DNA of 64,000 bases from Microthyrium microscopicum. Lineage: Eukaryota. Numbering within the stretch: position 1 is the stretch's first letter; every line of letters starts with the position of its first letter. Below, one piece after another: positions 21,637-30,732 of this stretch. Where the stretch lies: contig MU004231.1 in assembly GCA_010405405.1 (NCBI GenBank), positions 3,956,884 to 4,020,883 of the forward strand. The letters run 5' to 3'. The notes under the pieces are model-generated. The model had not been told where the DNA came from, searched no databases, and saw only the letters and a program-made list of their open reading frames with translations. The position numbers and the translations under genes were made by a program.

Positions 21637-22306
21637 AGAGTAGTGTGTGTACACGATTAAAAGTTATTTGTCCTTGTTTCCATGCATACGGATACATTTG
21701 CTGGTCAAAAATGGCCAAAGCGCATTTTCTTGAGGCGTCTTGCATTGCAGAGCCAGTTTTCTTCTCGGCGCCATAAAGTTCAAGCTTGTTTTTTGTCAGT
21801 GTCTGTCTCCAGAGGTGGAGATAGCTCGAGGATGGTTGGGAGCTTTCTTGTTGATGTAGACTTACGTTTAGATGCTGATGTCGTGGGTGGTCTTGGGGTG
21901 GCGTCTTGGTTCTGGGCGGTTGGGGCCTGTGTGAATAGTAGTAGTGTAATAACAAGGCTGACATATTACTTGACTTTACCTTGCTCTGATTATGTGGTTG
22001 CAACATTTGATCTTATACCAAATTCCTCAATTACTCCCGGCATCAACGCGGGGGTCGAATTACGGAAACCAGGGGGCTATCGAGCACAATGGCGTTCGAA
22101 TTGTTACTTTTGGTCGCTGGTGTTGGTCCATACCTCTTACATCTCAGGAGTCATGAGTTAGAACTGCAGTATTTTCCGTCTCGCTAGCTTATCAACAAAA
22201 GGCTCTAATCAATCAACACTGCAGCGTCAATTTCACTTCGTTACGTCTATGTATCTCAATTTGCCGTAACAGTATTCAGGAAACGCGTTAGTTACATTCA
22301 GAAGCC

Positions 22307-23659
22307 ATGACCGAGTCTCAGAAAGATCTCGCGCTGGGCGTCGAGATACCTGACATTGAGGTTACTAGTGGCCACAATTTTATCAAATACACCTGCAATG
22401 GACGAGGACTTGCAACTGATGGAGCTTACTTTCAGGCTGACTTATCAGATTTCCTTCCTGTCATACGCAAAAATCCGCAAGCCAACAAGACCTATTCCAG
22501 CCTCTCACATAAACGGGACCGTGCTTGGTGGCGCGCCCAATGCTCCTTTCGTGGCCTTCCAATTCGGGGTAACATCACAGAAATGCAAGCGCGGCTAAGA
22601 GCTGGGCCGACTTCCATGACCAGCGAGCTTGTCAAGTTGGAGGAAAAGTCCAAAGCCGGATGGAACGCCAAAGCGGAAGTACTTCGCGCAGAGGCACGAC
22701 AGAAACGTCAGGAACAAGAGCATTTGGAAGAACAGAAACGTATCGCGGAGGAGCGAAATCTTCTTAAAGTCTGTACGGATCGCTTGAAGGCCATCTTCGG
22801 CCCTGAAACAAGAGAGGGACATGTGTTCAAGGAGAATTGTCGTGGCGTCGATAAAGCAGCAAAGAGTCTGGGGCTTCATTTCAAGTGGATTGCTGCACCA
22901 GCGGTTTCTGGAGACTTGGACTGGGAAGCTGAATGGATCATCGTTGCGCCAAGTTCAGACCGAGTGGATATCACGGACTTCGCTGTCCAAAAATGGGCAG
23001 ACAATAGGAATTACTGTCAATTGCAAGCCCATTTACTGCTAGTGGAGGGGAGACAAATTGCAGCTCTAGCCTCAGAAGCGAAAAGAAGCTCCTTGGCTGC
23101 TGCTCATGCTGCCATTTCCGTTATGGACGGGGACTGGGATATTACCGGTATATGGAAGATAAATTGCAGTGATTCGGGCTACGAAGATGAGCTACAAAGT
23201 GATCAGTTGAGTCTCCGAATACACCGGATTACTGGAACCAAAGTGTCGCAGTTGTTTGCAGAATTTGACTTTGGACTCTTCAATGGCTTTTTCCGGTTTG
23301 AGGATCCTGGGACACATGCAATTTCAAAGCACGATATATGGGACAAACGCGAGAGGCTGGCATGGGATCGATATCTCATCCCGCTAAAGACGAAGCCATC
23401 GCATAGGTTTCCAGACTGGAGATTTCGCTGGAAAGGTAGGGGGGATCCGGAGGCAACTATTGAATACGATCCCGAGCAGAACGATTGCTCGATGAGATTT
23501 GGCGAAGAAGGAGGTGTGTTGTCGGGAACCTTTGAATATAATTCTACCCGCATCAATTTTGCTGGTGCAAAGATTGGGACCATCAGTGATGCTGAGACAG
23601 CAGCGATATCTATCGACCGAGAGTGGAACTCCTATAACAACACCGAACATGACACTTAG
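22307..23659 (+). CDS. Hypothetical protein (450 aa): WWRAQCSFRGL N-terminal motif, central coiled coil, beta-rich C-terminal domain
   Basis: Long intronless ORF. The WDITGIWKI...FAEFDFG...FRWKGR pattern resembles an uncharacterised fungal family. Confidence 0.75.
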   Translation: MTESQKDLALGVEIPDIEVTSGHNFIKYTCNGRGLATDGAYFQADLSDFLPVIRKNPQANKTYSSLSHKRDRAWWRAQCSFRGLPIRGNITEMQARLRAGPTSMTSELVKLEEKSKAGWNAKAEVLRAEARQKRQEQEHLEEQKRIAEERNLLKVCTDRLKAIFGPETREGHVFKENCRGVDKAAKSLGLHFKWIAAPAVSGDLDWEAEWIIVAPSSDRVDITDFAVQKWADNRNYCQLQAHLLLVEGRQIAALASEAKRSSLAAAHAAISVMDGDWDITGIWKINCSDSGYEDELQSDQLSLRIHRITGTKVSQLFAEFDFGLFNGFFRFEDPGTHAISKHDIWDKRERLAWDRYLIPLKTKPSHRFPDWRFRWKGRGDPEATIEYDPEQNDCSMRFGEEGGVLSGTFEYNSTRINFAGAKIGTISDAETAAISIDREWNSYNNTEHDT

Positions 23660-24165: not shown

Positions 24166-24654
24166 TTAGTTAGGCAGAGTTCCGCATCGCCACGAGCTGA
24201 TAGTATCATCCCAGCCTCGAGGCCGAAGATCTCGTAAGTCATCATTATCATTAACTGTGACCGTCCCGAGTAAAACGCTGCAGCCGTAATCCCTAGAAAA
24301 GAGTAAGTTTGGACTTGCGCTGAGACATGATTATGAAAACAGGTTGACAGCATACCTGTACAGTTGGCAAGACCAAGTTTCAGTCGCTTCTACTGAACTG
24401 GTCACATCGTTCCAGCCGGGCGGAACCCAATCTACAGATTGTTATCCTCTAGAAGTCTATTATTCTACGTGTAAAGTTGGTGAACACCTACTACAAACCC
24501 CTGGGGCGAAGGGGAACCATTGGCAATTCTTGAGTCCAGGATCTCTGCATAATCGGAAATACTTGGGACCCGGCTCTTGTTGGCCTTCGATTCCGATCAT
24601 TTAAAGTGCAAAGACGACGATTATGGGAAGCTGGAGCATGAATTTCAATGCCAT
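24166..24654 (-). pseudogene. Beta/gamma-crystallin-like small secreted Cys-rich protein, copy 1 (premature TAA at codon 18)
   Basis: Exons 24654-24492, 24431-24356 and 24292-24166 give MALKFMLQLPIIVVFAL*MIGIEGQQEPGPKYFRLCRDPGLKNCQWFPFAPGVCNWVPPGWNDVTSSVEATETWSCQLYRDYGCSVLLGTVTVNDNDDLRDLRPRGWDDTISSWRCGTLPN. Confidence 0.8.
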
Positions 24655-25385
24655 GTTTTTGGGCTTGATTGTGAGAAGTATGGAAAGGTGGAAGGATGGA
24701 AGGATGGGATATTGAATGAGTTGCTAAGTTTGTAGAGTGAGAGAAGATGACTTAAGCAAACGGGCCCTTTTATAGTTCTGTAGGATTGAACTCTGCCTAT
24801 ATGAGGCTATATCTAAGCTTTAAGTTTCTTTGTGAATTCCTCATATTCAATAGATTGGTATAACAATACGGCATACTCTGTACCTTAATCGTTACCTAGA
24901 CACTGGTTCAGTACGATCAATTAGAACCTTTCACAGCCATTACTCATGGGGAACTTTTGTGCCGCTTATGAGTCTTAGTATATATCGTTATATGCGCTGA
25001 CCAAAATGTTAAACAGCACACTACTATTCTTGGTCAACACACACTCCCCTTTCCGATCAATTTGATGAGTAACTAAGGTAATTCGTAGCAGGACCTAAGT
25101 TAACCTCGGAATCAACGCTCGGTCAGTGCTTCGATTGATCAAGGCCTATAGGCTGGCAACAGATCCGAAGATACAGGTAGATACAATACATTCATTCTCT
25201 CACAGCTATACTATCACCTCGTCTCCTCTGCACGAAAAGCTGTATCAAAGAGGACCTAAGTTTAGTGACACAGCAGTACATGGTCTCGACATAGTTCTTC
25301 CGGAGTCTATCATAATGTTTCGTGTAGCAGTATGGGTGGCCCAAACCAGCATCACTTAGTCCCGAGGATACCTCCAGGACATCGT

Positions 25386-25843
25386 TTAGTGTTCTTCATA
25401 TATAAAGTCGCACATAATGGAGCTGATGACATCGTTCCAGCCAAGACCAGCGATGTCGCTTATTGGCTCAGTGAAGGAACCTAATGGTGTTCGACAACTG
25501 TAATCCCTAGACTCCACATTAGCTTTCCACCAACACTTTTGGATCGCGCAACATACTTATACACCTCGCACACAGCACCCGATTCAATTACGATTGAGCT
25601 AATCGCATCGTTCAGTTCATCTGGCACATCAACTACAGGGTGTTACCGACTCAAGTAAATGTGATTTGATTGCGTTAATTGGCACTTACAACAATCATCT
25701 GAAGCTATGTTCCATTCTTCACAGTTTTGAAAGCCGGCATCTATGCAACACTTGATTCTTGGCCCCAATTGAGCATCGATATTAATGATTGAAATGGCAA
25801 CTACGAGGAACATGACCATGGAGGAGCAAAATTTGGAAGGCAT
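25386..25843 (-). CDS. Beta/gamma-crystallin-like small secreted Cys-rich protein, copy 2 (116 aa)
   Basis: Exons 25843-25690, 25632-25557 and 25506-25386 give MPSKFCSSMVMFLVVAISIINIDAQLGPRIKCCIDAGFQNCEEWNIASDDCFDVPDELNDAISSIVIESGAVCEVYKDYSCRTPLGSFTEPISDIAGLGWNDVISSIMCDFIYEEH; both introns are GT-AG. Confidence 0.87.
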
Positions 25844-26777
25844 GTTCAACGTCAGGAAAGTGTTTTGTGCTCAGGTTCCAGTTGGGATTTCCCTTCAAAG
25901 TTATATCTTGTCAGCTGCTACTGTTTTGTTTCTAGGTCTAACATGCTGGATTGTTTGTGTGACGGACTAACACAATATGATATGTTTAAATTCGGTCATG
26001 TCTAAGCCGCTGGATCTGTAGCCTCTGGAAACCCTGTGATACAACTTTCAACATGTCAGTGGCCCTTGTAATTACAATGACCAGGTGACGCAAGAGAAAA
26101 GCCCAATAGCCTGTTACTTTGCGCTTCTTGGTCGTAGACTTGTAAGCTTCTTTTGTCTCAAAATCACCAATAACAACCTGGTTTCTAGCCTAACTAAGCA
26201 TCTGAGTATCCAAGTATCTGCTTGATAAAGCTCCGACGAGGGCTTTCTACAATTATGAGCACTTGAGCAGTCTTTCATTCTCCTCATGTAAGTACCTAGC
26301 TCTACTTTGCAGGTTATACCTGTCGCACAAAGTGCTGGCAACTAATTTGATACTACTCTGTAACTGTCACACGTTCCCACATAGTACCAACGAAATTAGA
26401 GAAGTATTTTGTCTAACCTTGACCTACGATAGTTATTGAAAATGTAACTTCGATAATAGTTCCGTAATTTCAACCCTCCGAACCGCTCACTGGCAGTGGG
26501 AACAGAAACATGTTGTGTACGGAGAGCCTGAGTTATGGTGAGTAGTCCAACAACTCATCAAACAGAATTTGGGACTAGAGGAGATTTTCAATTCTCTCAC
26601 AGCTATAGATTCAACTTAATTCTCTTCCCAGGCTACAGAATCAAGATAGAAGTTGCAGTGACCCAGAAAGTTATGAATTTGAACTTGATTCTCGGCAGAT
26701 TTCACTGTAGTCTACTAGAAATCAAAGGTCTCAGTGAGTAATAACAGGTTTTCACTAGAAGGTAGCGCATGCGTCTA

Positions 26778-27243
26778 TCAATTTCGCGCTTGAGGAAGAT
26801 CTTTGCAGCCAAATGAGCTGATTGAATCATTCTCATCAGTGCCAGTGAGGTCTGCTACTTCTCCCACAGCCCAGCCAAAGGATCCCTGACATTCAAAATC
26901 CCTTAATAGCAGAATTTAGCAATACGAATGTACCCTATAATAATGTGTCTGGAACCTACTTGAACTTTTCACAAGCGACACCTGGCTCTACTTCGAATGA
27001 GCTGATCACGTCGTTCCATCCCTCTGGCACATCAACTGAAGAGGTCAATTAGTCAACGTTCTTCTCTGGTTAAATTCATGAAGGCTTACCGCAAGTATCT
27101 AGAGGTATGGTCCATAGCATACAATTTTTAAAGTCGACGTCTTTGCAAATATCCAAGTGTGGCCCAACTGCAAGATCTTGACCTTTGCTAACCATCACCA
27201 AGATGGCAAGTACGGCGATCGTAGAGAATATTTTGGAAGACAT
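26778..27243 (-). CDS. Beta/gamma-crystallin-like small secreted Cys-rich protein, copy 3 (117 aa)
   Basis: Exons 27243-27090, 27035-26960 and 26901-26778 give MSSKIFSTIAVLAILVMVSKGQDLAVGPHLDICKDVDFKNCMLWTIPLDTCVDVPEGWNDVISSFEVEPGVACEKFKDFECQGSFGWAVGEVADLTGTDENDSISSFGCKDLPQARN. A TATA-like CTATAAA lies about 100 bp upstream. Confidence 0.87.
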
Positions 27244-28287
27244 GCCGATTGTTGTTGTGCAGAAAGAGGGTTCGATAGATAAATTATGGGAGTAATTCAC
27301 TCCGAACGCAACAGCGATAGCGCGAGTTTGCTCTTCCATTTATAGTTCCCTTTCTCCAACTGCTGCCGTTAACTTCCTCCGAAATTCATCTTCGAACGCT
27401 TTGTGTGACAGTATTTCCCAGCATGGGTTTTGTGCCACTCCTCACTCGTGGACTACTACTTTTTGGAAACCTACAGACAGTGATAGAGTACATCCATGAT
27501 CAATCTAATGCTTCTTGTTATCATAACCTTGCAACCCAGGCGGAAATTGATGAAGTCTTAAACCTTATGGTCTCGCTAAGGCTGATAGGTAAGCTATTTT
27601 TGTGTTTGGATCATTAGTAACGAATCATGCATCGTTGAGCAATGTTATACATGCGTTCTAGCTTGTACCATTCATACTAGGCACCTAAGTAGCGTAGCTC
27701 AAGAACAGCGCATCTCGCAACTTACGATCGGGTCCATGAATGGGCAGTCTGATTGAAGTTTGGTAGCGTATCAAAAGGTGGGATAGATAACAGTACAATA
27801 TTGATAGGAAGCAAGTAGCAGAACTGGAATCACAAATCGCTAGTATTGCTCAACGAAATGCTCCAATATTTTCCAAACCATGATCTCGTTCTTAGAACTC
27901 TAACTGGACTAGTTTACGAAGGAATCCCGATCTTTACGAAGGCGCAGTAAACATCAGCGATCGACTTAAGCTTACTTAAAATATAGGGCTTGTAATAGGT
28001 CGAGTGGATATGCCTTCCCGCGGCATACCGATTCATCTCTCTCATCAAATCATTTTCTCTTGCACCTAGATAACCTCTAAGTACCTAGCTCATAAGACAT
28101 CCCGATTGCTTTCTACAATCACAGGTTTCACAACTGCTAACAACTAAGCTCGAGAGTCACAGAGTGTTAGTTACGAATTACGAATTTTTACGACTCCCAC
28201 AAGTAGGGCCATCGACGACATCATAGCTCTTGACCAACGGTCCAACAAGCTCTGTTCTACTCAACTATCAGCATCTACCACTAGCCT

Positions 28288-28788
28288 ATGGCAACCAAAA
28301 TGGCCGCCGTCGACACTCGCTCTCGTCCCATTTACCACGCCAACTGTCATTGCGGTTCGGTACAGATTACTGCCAAGATTCTATCTTTGGCAGAGTATCC
28401 TGTGTGCGACTGCAATTGTTCCATTTGCACCAAAAATGGCTATCTGCTGGTGTATCCCAAGCGGGAAGATTTCAAGATCACCGCTGGCGCCGAATCACTG
28501 AGTCAGTACCTTTTTGGGCTGAAGAACAAGCCGCATAACTTTTGCAAGCTATGTGGCACAAGCATGTTTATTGATTTCAGCCAAAGTGACGTGGAAAGCC
28601 AACGGGAGCATATCGCACTAAACGTAGGTCAAGGCTACACACGAGATTGATGTAAGCTGACGAAGGTTTAGGCCAGGACTATTGTTGATATTGAAGAAAT
28701 TATGGACACATTGAAGAGGAACAAGTTTGACGGAAAGCGAGAGCTGGGGCCGGTGTATGAAGCTCCAACGCCGGCTAAGGGTACATGA
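28288..28788 (+). CDS. GFA/CENP-V (Mss4-like) Zn-binding protein, 150 aa
   Basis: CHCG, CDCNCSICTKNGYL and HNFCKLCGTS motifs; intron 28624-28671. Confidence 0.9.
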
Positions 28789-29202: not shown

Positions 29203-30004
29203 TTAGGCACTACCAGTCATTATCTGGGTCAAATAGTCTATCGCTTTTTGGGCATCGCCATTTCCAGTGTAAGCAAAATGCCCACCTGTGAGTTGAAGTT
29301 CTCCGTGACAAACGCCATCATCCTAGCCAAGGTTAGTAGGAAGACGTTAAGCAGTATTAGAAATTACCTCAAGGCAATAGGTGCGAAATTTGTCTTTTGG
29401 CCAGCCAGTGATGGTCGCAGACGACTGTTGGTTTTTTGTATCGCCAAAGAGTACACCTCCAACGATGGACGATTTAACATCAGCTGGGAGCGCTGGAATA
29501 ACATTATGCATAAGAGCAGCTCCTTGGCTATCGCGTTATATTAGTATAACTTCACGGTTCACCAAATTTCGCGACTACACACCTGTATCCCATAAACGTG
29601 AGCTTTGCCTTGGGGCACTTGGTATGTACGTCGGTGAAAGTCTTTACACCGGCCTCAATACAAGTATCACAGCTACCCTTCTCCTTGAAGTTATCACCGA
29701 TCGCGGCAGGATAGCCTGGTGCGTTGATGCCCTGGCAGTCGAATTTATCGGCCAGCTTAGTTTTGAGGGCACTGCATAGCATGGGGCCGACTGTAATCCC
29801 CTAGTCACAGCTGATTAGTTTAAAAGAACATTAAAAGCGATACAAAATACTCACGACATTGCCGGGCTCCATTGATCCTCTTGCAACGACAAGGACCGCA
29901 TCAGGACATTTCTCACCAAGGCTGTAAGACGTGGGGCCGCGACTACTGCTTTGGGGAAGCGCGGCGGCCATGCCAGCGAGAGTGATGACACCTGTGATCT
30001 TCAT
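29203..30004 (-). CDS. Cutinase (CE5), secreted
   Basis: Signal peptide, ARGSMEPGNVG, GYS|QGA nucleophile elbow split by an intron, VLFGD, CLEDDGVC and GHFAY (Ser-Asp-His triad). Introns at 29801-29854, 29528-29582 and 29323-29367. Confidence 0.93.
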
Positions 30005-30732
30005 AGTGTTGGATTTTAAACGAGTGACTGTGGGATAGAATATCTAGGCACCAGAGAACAACGCAGCGGGACGGGGTTATAATTACTGTTGGCCAAGAAT
30101 CTTTAAATATAGCGGCCGCGATCGCGATATTACTCAATTCTAGAAGCTCTAACGGAACTAGCCATAAGGACCAAGGGGTGCATTGATACACACCACTCAT
30201 TGGATACGGGACAGACCGCGCTCACCGAATAGAATATGATCGGTAGATCACTTAATCAGACAGGGAGTCAAAACACATTTCTTATGATCCAGATCTGGAC
30301 GCATTTGCGCATTTATGGAGATGGCCAGTGCCTTTAAAGAAGTTAACAGGGAGTTTCTCATGGCCTTAGCTCGATATGAATGATCTATACGGCTATATCG
30401 TTTAAATGAATATTCTTGGGACTGCTGGTTGGAACGGGACTTCAAAACGCCGACCATAGTGAGCCCTCTACAGCCTTGTTGTGCACGACGAGAATAACAT
30501 TTCTAGGCAAGCATCGCTATGATTAAAGCGAGATAATGATTGTGATGTATTGCTAAAGGAATCAATCCCCTCTGAGATAGGCATTTCATACATTGTTTTT
30601 ATCATTTGCCAAATATCTTCCACCGGTCAAAGACACAGATCCAGAGCATAACAGCCTTGGAGGTCATAAAAGTCATAAAACGACACTAAAGAAGTCAATT
30701 TTCCATACCAAAGCCGACATACAAACACATTT

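Follow-up and report, generated by a model that had tools for sequence, protein, structure and literature searches.

Spherulin 3a of Physarum polycephalum (1hdf, 1ag4), which of the described proteins stands closest to those discussed here, is an intracellular stress or encystment protein that is dimeric and is made without a signal peptide. A fungal beta/gamma-crystallin, the abundant perithecial protein (APP) of Neurospora crassa (5z6e, 5z6d), is linked to fruiting bodies. The same double Greek-key fold class also takes in WmKT, SKLP, MiAMP1 and SMPI, among which WmKT and MiAMP1 are basic and none, to our knowledge, carries a calcium motif. Crystallin-like secreted proteins have already been described in fungi and, in the parts of these reports drawn on here, those of plant-pathogenic species often form lineage-specific families (10.1101/127746, PMC10462633, PMC9447291, PMC13525658).

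Where among these systems does a group of small genes in Microthyrium microscopicum belong? The 64-kb window considered here, that is the whole stretch of DNA that was analysed, contains three small, neighbouring, paralogous genes on the minus strand at 24166-27243. That their structures have been read correctly and that they encode crystallins is almost certain. What such proteins would do outside the cell is a matter on which several readings compete.

Structure of the gene array

The gene models, which were read from the sequence (Table 1), bear out the architecture that a first-pass annotation of this DNA had proposed, namely three same-strand genes of 116-121 codons with two introns at identical positions and in identical phases in every copy (intron 1 in phase 1, intron 2 in phase 2), a middle exon of 76 nt throughout and a first exon of 154 nt in copies 2 and 3. 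All six introns have GT..AG ends, and their lengths lie between 50 and 63 nt. Each encoded protein begins with what, judged by eye, is a signal peptide, in which an N-terminal Lys is followed by about 14 hydrophobic residues. The claim of six aligned Cys residues holds in that six do align across all three copies, although the mature part of copy 2 has seven, with one more in its signal peptide.

The similarity among the three copies is far above chance. Inside the window tblastn matches copy 3 with copy 2 at E 2.4e-11, copy 2 with copy 1 at E 8.6e-7 and copy 3 with copy 1 at E 2.5e-5, and identity between paralogues across the domain runs from 33/88 to 29/86. A count on the alignment also returned the figure given earlier for exon 2, where copies 2 and 3 are identical at 13 of 26 residues. 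With regard to further copies, no other tblastn match with E < 0.06 was found inside the 64-kb window. About 2 kb from the array, and on the same strand, there is a cutinase gene.

Table 1. Positions of the array features within the 64-kb window
Feature	Position	Strand	Details
Copy 3 gene	26778..27243	-	117 aa; exons 27243-27090 (154 nt), 27035-26960 (76 nt), 26901-26778 (124 nt); model from sequence
Copy 3 introns	27089-27036 (54 nt), 26959-26902 (58 nt)	-	
Copy 3 first N/D-N/D-x-x-S/T-S motif, NDVISS	27001..27018	-	in the 76-nt middle exon; aligns with spherulin 3a NDvvSS
Copy 3 second N/D-N/D-x-x-S/T-S motif, NDSISS	26812..26829 (approximate to within a codon)	-	in exon 3; aligns with spherulin 3a NDaiSS
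Copy 2 gene	25386..25843	-	116 aa; exons 25843-25690 (154 nt), 25632-25557 (76 nt), 25506-25386 (121 nt); model from sequence
Copy 2 introns	25689-25633 (57 nt), 25556-25507 (50 nt)	-	
Copy 1	24166..24654	-	121 codons, one of them an internal stop; exons 24654-24492 (163 nt), 24431-24356 (76 nt), 24292-24166 (127 nt); model from sequence
Copy 1 introns	24491-24432 (60 nt), 24355-24293 (63 nt)	-	
Copy 1 in-frame TAA	24601..24603	-	codon 18 of 121, in the signal-peptide region; read directly from sequence

Annotation and transcript evidence

The models of copies 3 and 2 are identical to the M. microscopicum proteins KAF2673826.1 (BT63DRAFT_410780) and KAF2673825.1 (BT63DRAFT_451880), respectively. 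The description of the genes as hidden is thus wrong for these two, which are already public in GenBank, and may hold for copy 1, for which no public protein was found: a search with its exon 3 as query returned 12 candidates and none at E<=1, which is weak evidence of a missing annotation. Both public entries are carried as hypothetical proteins.

Transcripts are represented by X1, a single sequencing run that we take to contain cDNA. Because its cover of the region is incomplete, X1 does not represent genomic DNA of M. microscopicum. A 293-nt contig from this run is joined exactly over both introns of copy 3, skipping 27036-27089 and 26902-26959 with CT..AC ends on the plus strand, so that a comparison of the predicted junctions with transcripts, as had been suggested, finds both of them bridged in this copy. 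A further contig, of 220 nt (24432-24651), runs through exon 1 and the unspliced intron 1 of copy 1 with 0 differences, the TAA included. Over copy 2 and over exons 2-3 of copy 1 no X1 cover was seen, which is uninformative on their expression. Copy 3 is transcribed and spliced, and copies 2 and 3 look intact.

The premature stop in copy 1

Copy 1 keeps all six Cys and both calcium-type motifs, and its branch in the tree has a length of 2.05 compared with 0.73 and 0.97 for the other two copies. Because the in-frame TAA sits inside the signal peptide, this unannotated paralogue is probably a pseudogene, most likely one of young age, and it documents turnover within the array. It may still be expressed, given the X1 contig over its exon 1 and unspliced intron 1, and the stop could be specific to the sequenced strain. 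The first-pass description makes no mention of the internal TAA. A cryptic intron that excises the stop was considered and rejected, since only non-consensus GT sites are available, the X1 contig is colinear at this place and the signal peptide would lose its hydrophobic core.

Homology to the beta/gamma-crystallins

The identification of the proteins as beta/gamma-crystallins, made in the first place from a repeat pattern, is upheld both by sequence homology and by predicted structures. With copy 3 as a phmmer query against PDB sequences, spherulin 3a is matched at E 0.003 and is aligned from the first motif through the second. Against 1.84 billion representatives the search yields 110 matches at E<=1e-3, among them proteins with several domains, whose E values run from 2.4e-11 to 1.8e-10. 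A Pfam scan of 41 of the 110 places PF00030 (Crystall) in 14 and PF03995 in 22 (E<=0.01), and direct matches to PF00030-bearing proteins reach E 2.4e-11. A profile built from 55 small relatives and run against PDB sequences finds spherulin 3a (E 1e-10), flavollin (5e-8), Protein S (8e-6) and betaB2-crystallin (1.8e-4); at E<=1 it matches 38 sequences, of which 35 are crystallin-fold proteins.

Pfam families are absent from the copy 2 and copy 3 proteins even at E<=10, the gathering scores of PF00030, PF08964 and PF03995 not being reached, and a scan of single exons as well as whole proteins gives no family, its sole row being a sub-threshold DUF5654 (E 0.095). Among the 55 relatives (E<=0.01) PF03995 Inhibitor_I36 is found in 10 (best E 1.5e-7) and PF08964 in 2, and 45 are without a match. 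The absent Pfam match represents a gap in model coverage and does not contradict the homology shown by the searches above.

The classical Y/F-x-x-x-x-Y/F-x-G signature is degenerate in the window proteins. When it is written as Y/F/W-x-x-x-x-Y/F-x-G, Cys takes the place of the first aromatic residue of motif 1 and of the second aromatic residue of motif 2, a substitution shared by 52 of the 55 relatives at the former position and by all 55 at the latter, and the Gly gives way to Asn in the first motif of copy 3 and to Thr in the second motif of copy 2. The signature Ser is kept (S64 in 53/55 and S106 in 49/55 relatives), as is Gly83 of motif 2 in 47/55. An hhalign comparison of the family's first and second Greek keys aligns just 12 columns around WND-x-ISS (P 1.8e-8), and beyond these columns the internal repeat can be seen only in the predicted fold.

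Predicted structure

For copies 3 and 2 AlphaFold gives pLDDT values of 89.4 and 88.5, respectively, which rise above 95 over the domain, and the layout of strands is the same in both models. The leading Foldseek matches of both models are 1hdf, 1nps and 5z6e, with spherulin 3a (1hdf) at the top (E 1.0e-5 for copy 2); at E<=1e-3 there are 18 matches for copy 3 and 23 for copy 2, all of them crystallins among the matches listed. VIA-align gives Z 12.7 for 3hzb (rmsd 1.7, 81 aligned), 12.5 for 1hdf (rmsd 1.9, 85 aligned), 12.2 for 1nps, 12.0 for 3snz and 11.4 for 2bv2. Structure prediction followed by Foldseek, which had been put forward as a check, thus recovers the double Greek-key fold for copies 2 and 3, and the models support a single beta/gamma-crystallin domain in which two Greek-key motifs make up an eight-stranded beta-sandwich.

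The comparators that the first-pass annotation had chosen are less apt, as WmKT, SKLP and MiAMP1 are distant members of the fold, with Z 4.7-6.1 against 12.0-12.7 for the Ca2+-binding crystallins flavollin, spherulin 3a, Protein S and clostrillin. The individual VIA-align values are 6.1 for MiAMP1 (1c01), 5.7 for WmKT (1wkt), 4.9 for AFP1 of S. tendae (1gh5) and 4.7 for SKLP (1f53). In the family-profile search of PDB sequences none of WmKT, SKLP and MiAMP1 is matched at E<=1, and SMPI is matched neither at E<=1 in that search nor among the best 50 VIA-align matches; a relationship to any of them may still exist.

Calcium motifs, cysteines and charge

The Ca2+ motif N/D-N/D-x-x-S/T-S, as defined in the part of 10.1101/127746 drawn on here, is found in canonical form in each repeat of every copy, in agreement with the two-fold internal repeat noticed earlier. 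Besides the two motifs of copy 3 in Table 1, there are NDAISS and NDVISS in copy 2 and NDVTSS and DDTISS in copy 1. Among the 55 relatives motif 1 is present in 38, motif 2 in 39 and both in 30, and the aromatic residue right before each motif is highly conserved (50/55 and 45/55). To judge from the motifs, the balance tips towards Ca2+ binding by the putative double-clamp sites.

All six Cys are present in 47 of the 55 relatives, and presumably they form three disulfides. The domain is strongly acidic, with a net charge of -12.2 in copy 3 and -14.2 in copy 2, and the relatives have a median pI of 4.62, which falls below 5 in 39/55 and exceeds 8 in 4/55.

Family distribution, duplication and selection

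The family spans Ascomycota, Basidiomycota and Mortierellaceae, and its members are found in pathogens such as Colletotrichum, Pyricularia, Drepanopeziza and Metarhizium, among other fungi. Some relatives already go by the name 'Beta/gamma crystallin' in databases. A partial literature search found no paper giving a functional characterisation of this six-Cys, Ca-motif fungal subfamily.

In the tree copies 2 and 3 group as sisters (SH-aLRT 94), and a tree that holds all three copies together lies 25 lnL units above the free quick tree (p-AU 0.846). Between copies 3 and 2 the NG86 dN/dS comes to 0.54/1.11, or about 0.5, and dS is 2.6 between copies 3 and 1 and undefined between copies 2 and 1. 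Saturation of dS between paralogues means that a selection test is not possible on these pairs. The term 'diversifying', which had been attached to the family, finds no backing here, there being no sign of positive selection in the one ratio and saturation in the other pairs.

Interpretation of the locus

Taken as a whole, the locus is on balance likely to be a tandem array of secreted Ca2+-type crystallins with an extracellular role, in which copy 1 is a pseudogene. The array would have arisen by local tandem duplication in M. microscopicum, each gene giving rise to a small secreted protein with a single beta/gamma-crystallin domain. This domain would belong to a pan-fungal, functionally uncharacterised subfamily that combines the microbial 'double-clamp' Ca2+ motif in both Greek keys with six conserved Cys. 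After cleavage of the signal peptide the acidic domain would be oxidised in the secretory pathway and would then bind Ca2+ at both motif sites, and outside the cell it may serve as a stable Ca2+-dependent protein associated with the wall or another surface, or else as a stress-protective one. The structural or protective nature of this extracellular role is proposed tentatively and fits the proteins to which the domain is most closely related, spherulin 3a, Protein S and APP of Neurospora.

An unlikely alternative is that the proteins are secreted antimicrobials or inhibitors which act like WmKT, SKLP, SMPI or MiAMP1 and which diversify in conflict with competitors. They are small, Cys-rich and predicted to be secreted, they have the general fold class in common with MiAMP1, WmKT, AFP1 and SKLP, the Inhibitor_I36 family is matched by 10 of their 55 relatives, and the paralogues have diverged to the low domain identities given above. 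However, the Z values of these comparators are only about half those of the Ca2+-binding crystallins, PF03995 is not matched by the window proteins themselves, and the dN/dS of 0.49 for copies 3 and 2 gives no sign of positive selection. The net charge of -12 to -14 is also set against the basic WmKT and MiAMP1, and the window proteins do not have the look of a cationic killer toxin. Ecp4, Ecp7, CfCE44 and CfCE72 of C. fulvum are proposed, in the portion of the source used here, to be crystallin-like with possible antimicrobial roles, but the same portion states that they lack the Ca motif, which the window proteins keep (10.1101/127746).

It is less likely again, and indeed improbable, that the array encodes plant-interaction effectors of the crystallin-like orphan class, which would be released on the leaf surface or within the leaf tissue and would manipulate the host. 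The cutinase gene close by on the same strand would suit such a role. The family, however, occurs just as much in soil saprobes, wood decayers, Mortierellaceae and an insect pathogen, which argues for a general fungal function, and M. microscopicum is a saprobe on dead leaves. On the side of effectors the literature, as far as the excerpts used here extend, offers a 'Crystallin' orphan candidate effector family in >80% of species surveyed (PMC10462633), a gamma-crystallin-like cluster of 18 secreted proteins in M. oryzae (PMC9447291), a gamma-crystallin cluster of Z. passerinii that is enriched for predicted effectors (PMC13525658) and the leaf-surface lifestyle of the fungus itself (10.1101/2020.03.13.989582). 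This effector-type enrichment of crystallin-like proteins, taken with the family members in pathogens, makes a role in interaction with other organisms possible. Nevertheless, the effector or antimicrobial role originally assigned to the array is not supported for very acidic proteins of a leaf-surface fly-speck fungus that is no known pathogen, and the more specific 'diversifying antimicrobial effector' is unsupported because of the charge of -12/-14 and a dN/dS of about 0.5 with saturated dS.

The idea that the array is an artefact of chance ORFs or mis-joined exons, for which the absent Pfam matches and nothing else can be cited, has next to no probability and is refuted for copies 2 and 3, given a spliced X1 contig that fits the predicted junctions exactly, 110 homologues at E<=1e-3, confident structure models (pLDDT 89.4 and 88.5) and identical models in the public annotation.

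Significance

The secreted crystallins of this array are a real and fairly ordinary finding, new members of a recognised fungal class, because two of the genes are annotated, one is interrupted by a premature stop and the family occurs widely among fungi. A more precise name can be given to this family, that of secreted, six-Cys, Ca-motif-bearing single-domain crystallins whose nearest relatives are spherulin 3a and Protein S and not the killer toxins. As Pfam models miss 45 of the 55 relatives, a dedicated family model would improve the annotation of fungal secretomes; beyond annotation the finding has little weight.

A more far-reaching and rather doubtful proposal is that these proteins represent a distinct pan-fungal clade outside Pfam, of secreted crystallins that are both disulfide-locked and Ca2+-binding, which would form a bridge from the Ca2+-binding microbial crystallins to the Cys-rich killer-toxin and Ecp4 types that are devoid of the Ca motif. 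If this were true, the clade might have an extracellular function of its own, for instance Ca2+-dependent binding of fungal or plant surface polymers.

Comparison with known systems

Spherulin 3a is likewise a one-domain protein, its beta/gamma-crystallin domain being about 100 aa long. In sequence it is the best match (E 0.003 with a single sequence, 1e-10 with the profile), and it is also the top Foldseek match of both models, with Z 12.5, and both of its NDxxSS motifs align with those of the window proteins. It differs in being without the six-Cys pattern: in the profile alignment the positions of the family's Cys are taken by Y, F and other residues.

The Ca2+-binding crystallins flavollin (3hzb), Protein S (1nps/1prs), clostrillin (3i9h/3snz), M-crystallin (3hz2) and the Ciona protein (2bv2) share the fold, with Z 11.2-12.7 over 80-85 residues. 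The bacterial, archaeal and Ciona proteins also share the N/D-N/D-x-x-S/T-S type of motif and are reached by the family profile at E 5e-8 to 0.01. These proteins have no conserved disulfides and are mostly parts of larger proteins, whereas the fungal family is a stand-alone, secreted six-Cys domain. The Foldseek E values of Neurospora APP are 5.4e-5 with the copy 3 model and 1.9e-5 with that of copy 2, and its VIA-align Z is 10.7, but it has two domains in about 200 aa, is not Cys-rich and shows marginal sequence similarity (profile E 0.43).

WmKT, SKLP, MiAMP1 and SMPI/PF03995 resemble the window proteins in fold class and in being disulfide-rich and secreted. The structural scores, which are those of WmKT, SKLP and MiAMP1, are much weaker, and the window proteins are acidic and have no PF03995 match. 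Similar in general appearance are C. fulvum Ecp4, Ecp7, CfCE44 and CfCE72 (10.1101/127746), M. oryzae cluster 14 (PMC9447291) and the 'Crystallin' orphan effectors (PMC10462633), which in the sections of these papers relied on here are likewise small, secreted and Cys-rich with a predicted crystallin fold. As they are described there, the C. fulvum proteins lack N/D-N/D-X-X-S/T-S and have the Cys spacing of MiAMP1 (10.1101/127746), and by this description they are set apart from the window proteins, which carry the motif in both repeats.

Gene models, neighbourhood and transcripts

The array of three minus-strand genes, copies 1, 2 and 3, is real, and consists of tandem, predicted-secreted single-domain beta/gamma-crystallins, of which two are intact and one is a probable pseudogene. 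When the exons are reassembled from the minus strand their lengths are those proposed in the first-pass annotation, as is the count of 13 identical residues among the 26 across exon 2 of copies 2 and 3, and all six introns are of the GT..AG type and 50-63 nt long, the first splitting a codon after base 1 and the second after base 2 in every copy. A tblastn search of the 64-kb window with each spliced protein recovered the other two loci (E 2.4e-11, 8.6e-7 and 2.5e-5) and no further match at E < 0.06, and the pattern aromatic/Leu/Gly-N/D-N/D-x-hydrophobic-S/T-S has 7 sites in a six-frame scan of the window, 6 of them inside the three copies. Long ORFs are absent from the ~7 kb (23.7-30.8 kb) in which the array is located, an interval that also contains a GFA-domain gene and a cutinase gene and has a 455-aa ORF and an AAA ATPase at its flanks. 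The cutinase gene has a signal-peptide-like start near 30000, placing another secreted product near the array, and the string GAACTATAAA is common to the TATA-like boxes of copies 3 and 1.

Features of the array and its surroundings (window positions; exons of copies 1-3 joined by coordinates)
Feature	Position	Strand	Details
Copy 3	27243-27090, 27035-26960, 26901-26778	minus	exons of 154, 76, 124 nt; 117 aa
Copy 2	25843-25690, 25632-25557, 25506-25386	minus	exons of 154, 76, 121 nt; 116 aa
Copy 1	24654-24492, 24431-24356, 24292-24166	minus	exons of 163, 76, 127 nt; 121 codons
TATA-like box, copy 3	27339-27344	minus	~100 nt upstream of start codon; consensus match only
TATA-like box, copy 2	25901-25906	minus	~60 nt upstream of start codon; consensus match only
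TATA-like box, copy 1	24767-24774	minus	~120 nt upstream of start codon; consensus match only
Cutinase gene	29347-30043	minus	intron-split; PF01083, E 4.3e-11 and 2.1e-7 on two exon pieces
GFA domain gene	28285-28650	plus	glutathione-dependent formaldehyde-activating, CENP-V type; PF04828, E 6.9e-10
455-aa open frame	22292-23659	plus	adjoins array; no Pfam family at E<=0.001

What is the evidence that these models are transcribed? The sequencing run X1 has 15% of the sampled words in common with the region, and three of its contigs are placed there. One of these, 293 nt in length, spans 26852-27256, and its joints omit exactly 26902-26959 and 27036-27089, the two predicted copy-3 introns, with the ends of both omitted sequences reading CT..AC on the plus strand. 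Since X1 is patchy over the region and contains this intron-less form of copy 3 it must hold cDNA, and copy 3 is therefore transcribed and spliced as predicted. Another contig (27256-27480, 225 nt) lies upstream of the copy-3 start codon, abutting the spliced contig at 27256; it may reflect a long 5' UTR, a start further upstream or transcription of the opposite strand. It reaches past the TATA-like box of copy 3.

Copy 1 is the probable pseudogene, carrying an in-frame TAA at 24603-24601 (minus strand), which is codon 18 and falls in the middle of the putative signal peptide; the copy is otherwise intact in its splice sites, six cysteines and both Ca-type motifs. The stop is confirmed in a second library by the remaining X1 contig (24432-24651, 220 nt, 0 differences), which comprises copy-1 exon 1 with the entire intron 1, so that copy 1 appears in X1 at most as an unspliced transcript. 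An ATG directly follows the TAA, and a product starting there would be without a signal peptide. The genes had been described as hidden, which probably holds for copy 1 alone: the copy 3 product is identical to GenBank KAF2673826.1 (BT63DRAFT_410780) of Microthyrium microscopicum and the copy 2 model to KAF2673825.1 (BT63DRAFT_451880), whereas a search for longer proteins with exon 3 of copy 1 as query gave no match, and the in-frame stop codon would explain why this copy is unannotated.

Homology and predicted fold

As judged from sequence comparison, the beta/gamma-crystallin homology of the copies is clear, despite Pfam giving no family for either their exons or the full-length proteins. 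With copy 3 as the query, phmmer matches spherulin 3a among PDB sequences (E 0.003, the alignment being bounded by the two NDxxSS motifs), and finds 110 matches at E<=1e-3 among 1.84 billion representatives. Besides itself the top match is copy 2 (E 3.8e-16, 36% identity), followed by proteins of several domains (E 2.4e-11 to 1.8e-10), and a Pfam scan of 41 of the 110 (E<=0.01) gave PF00030 Crystall in 14, PF03995 in 22, no family in 18 and unrelated families in 1. An alignment, A1, was made of the 55 matches of <=175 aa with a single matched stretch, leaving out 55 longer or multi-stretch matches, and its profile matches spherulin 3a over the whole domain among PDB sequences (1e-10), as well as flavollin (5e-8), Protein S (8e-6), clostrillin (3.6e-5) and betaB2-crystallin (1.8e-4), with crystallin-fold proteins accounting for 35 of the 38 matches at E<=1.

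Of the 55 A1 sequences, 52, 52, 54, 52, 55 and 52 have the successive cysteines and 47 have all six. Among the residues that these cysteines replace are the first aromatic in the hairpin signature of motif 1 and the second aromatic in that of motif 2. Six aligned cysteines had been proposed for the copies, and these are indeed present, although copy 2 has an extra one beside the first conserved cysteine and another in the signal peptide.

The AlphaFold models of copies 3 and 2, which used the homologue alignments as input, have pLDDT values of 89.4 and 88.5, rising above 95 over residues 30-110, and their top Foldseek ranks are 1hdf, 1nps, 5z6e, 3hz2 and 3hzb. VIA-align, a Foldseek-independent search of 48,161 chains, returns Z scores of 12.0-12.7 for flavollin, spherulin 3a, Protein S and clostrillin, 11.4 for Ciona crystallin, about 10-11 for lens crystallins, 10.7 for Neurospora APP, 6.1 for MiAMP1, 5.7 for WmKT, 4.9 for S. 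tendae AFP1 and 4.7 for SKLP. The crystallin fold suggested in the first-pass annotation is borne out by the models, both structure searches and the profile matches; MiAMP1, WmKT and SKLP, which it had named as relatives, prove to be distant, the near ones being Ca2+-binding microbial crystallins. The copy 2 protein is named 'Extracellular membrane protein CFEM domain-containing protein' in UniRef, a Pfam scan of it at E<=0.01 finds no family, CFEM included, and the name looks wrong given the predicted crystallin fold.

Duplication and distribution

Copies 2 and 3 are sisters in the tree (SH-aLRT 94) and the copy 1 branch is long (2.05 versus 0.73 and 0.97), while a tree forcing the three copies together is 25 log-likelihood units better than a quick free search (p-AU 0.846); local tandem duplication is consistent with the tree and with the common exon-intron layout. 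Domain identity is 33/88 between copies 3 and 2, and 29/86 for both pairs with copy 1. The array had been called diversifying, and no evidence of such selection was found, with NG86 dN/dS at 0.54/1.11 in the comparison of copy 3 with copy 2 and saturation in the remaining pairs; as paralogues the copies are too old to test for it.

The family is widespread in fungi and uncharacterised, yet already partly recognised. The window itself is from a fungus, Microthyrium microscopicum, which is placed in the Microthyriales (Dothideomycetes) and is apparently one of the leaf-surface fly-speck fungi. From 30 representatives looked up 29 were named, all of them fungal, and members occur in Dothideomycetes (Periconia, Tothia, Trematosphaeria, Melanomma), Sordariomycetes (Metarhizium, Colletotrichum, Pyricularia, Microdochium and others), Leotiomycetes (Pseudogymnoascus, Drepanopeziza), Agaricomycetes (Mycena, Psilocybe, Pterulicium, Ceratobasidium and others) and Mortierellaceae. 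Alongside copy 3 the ESM Atlas has fungal clusters of 187, 102, 80 and 57 members. 'Beta/gamma crystallin' names are already on 3 representatives and 1 cluster member, the others being hypothetical proteins. Secreted crystallin-like proteins are an acknowledged fungal class (10.1101/127746, PMC10462633, PMC9447291, PMC13525658), and a search of the accessible literature found no functional study of the six-Cys, Ca-motif fungal subfamily.

Calcium motif, charge and known systems

What might these proteins do? The most likely reading is of a disulfide-stabilised domain that would act outside the cell and bind Ca2+. The Ca-type motif, N/D-N/D-x-x-S/T-S, is found in both Greek keys of all three copies, and in A1 is intact in the first key of 38/55, the second of 39/55 and both of 30/55. 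An aromatic residue directly precedes it in 50/55 at the first site (copy-3 residue 58) and 45/55 at the second (residue 100), the exceptions including Glu in copy 3 at the second site and Leu in copy 2 at the first. The mature domains of copies 3 and 2 have net charges of -12.2 and -14.2, and the A1 family has a median pI of 4.62 (below 5 in 39/55, above 8 in 4/55), the acidity of the copies being compatible with a putative Ca2+-binding protein.

An antimicrobial or effector role, as put forward in the first-pass annotation, is possible, but is favoured neither by this charge, nor by the closest relatives, nor by the selection signal. WmKT and MiAMP1 are basic proteins, the opposite of the acidic copies 2 and 3. 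According to 10.1101/127746, microbial members bind Ca2+ through N/D-N/D-x-x-S/T-S, a double-clamp motif that is lacking in Ecp4, Ecp7, CfCE44 and CfCE72, which are crystallin-like effectors of C. fulvum; copies 1-3, in contrast, have it in both keys.
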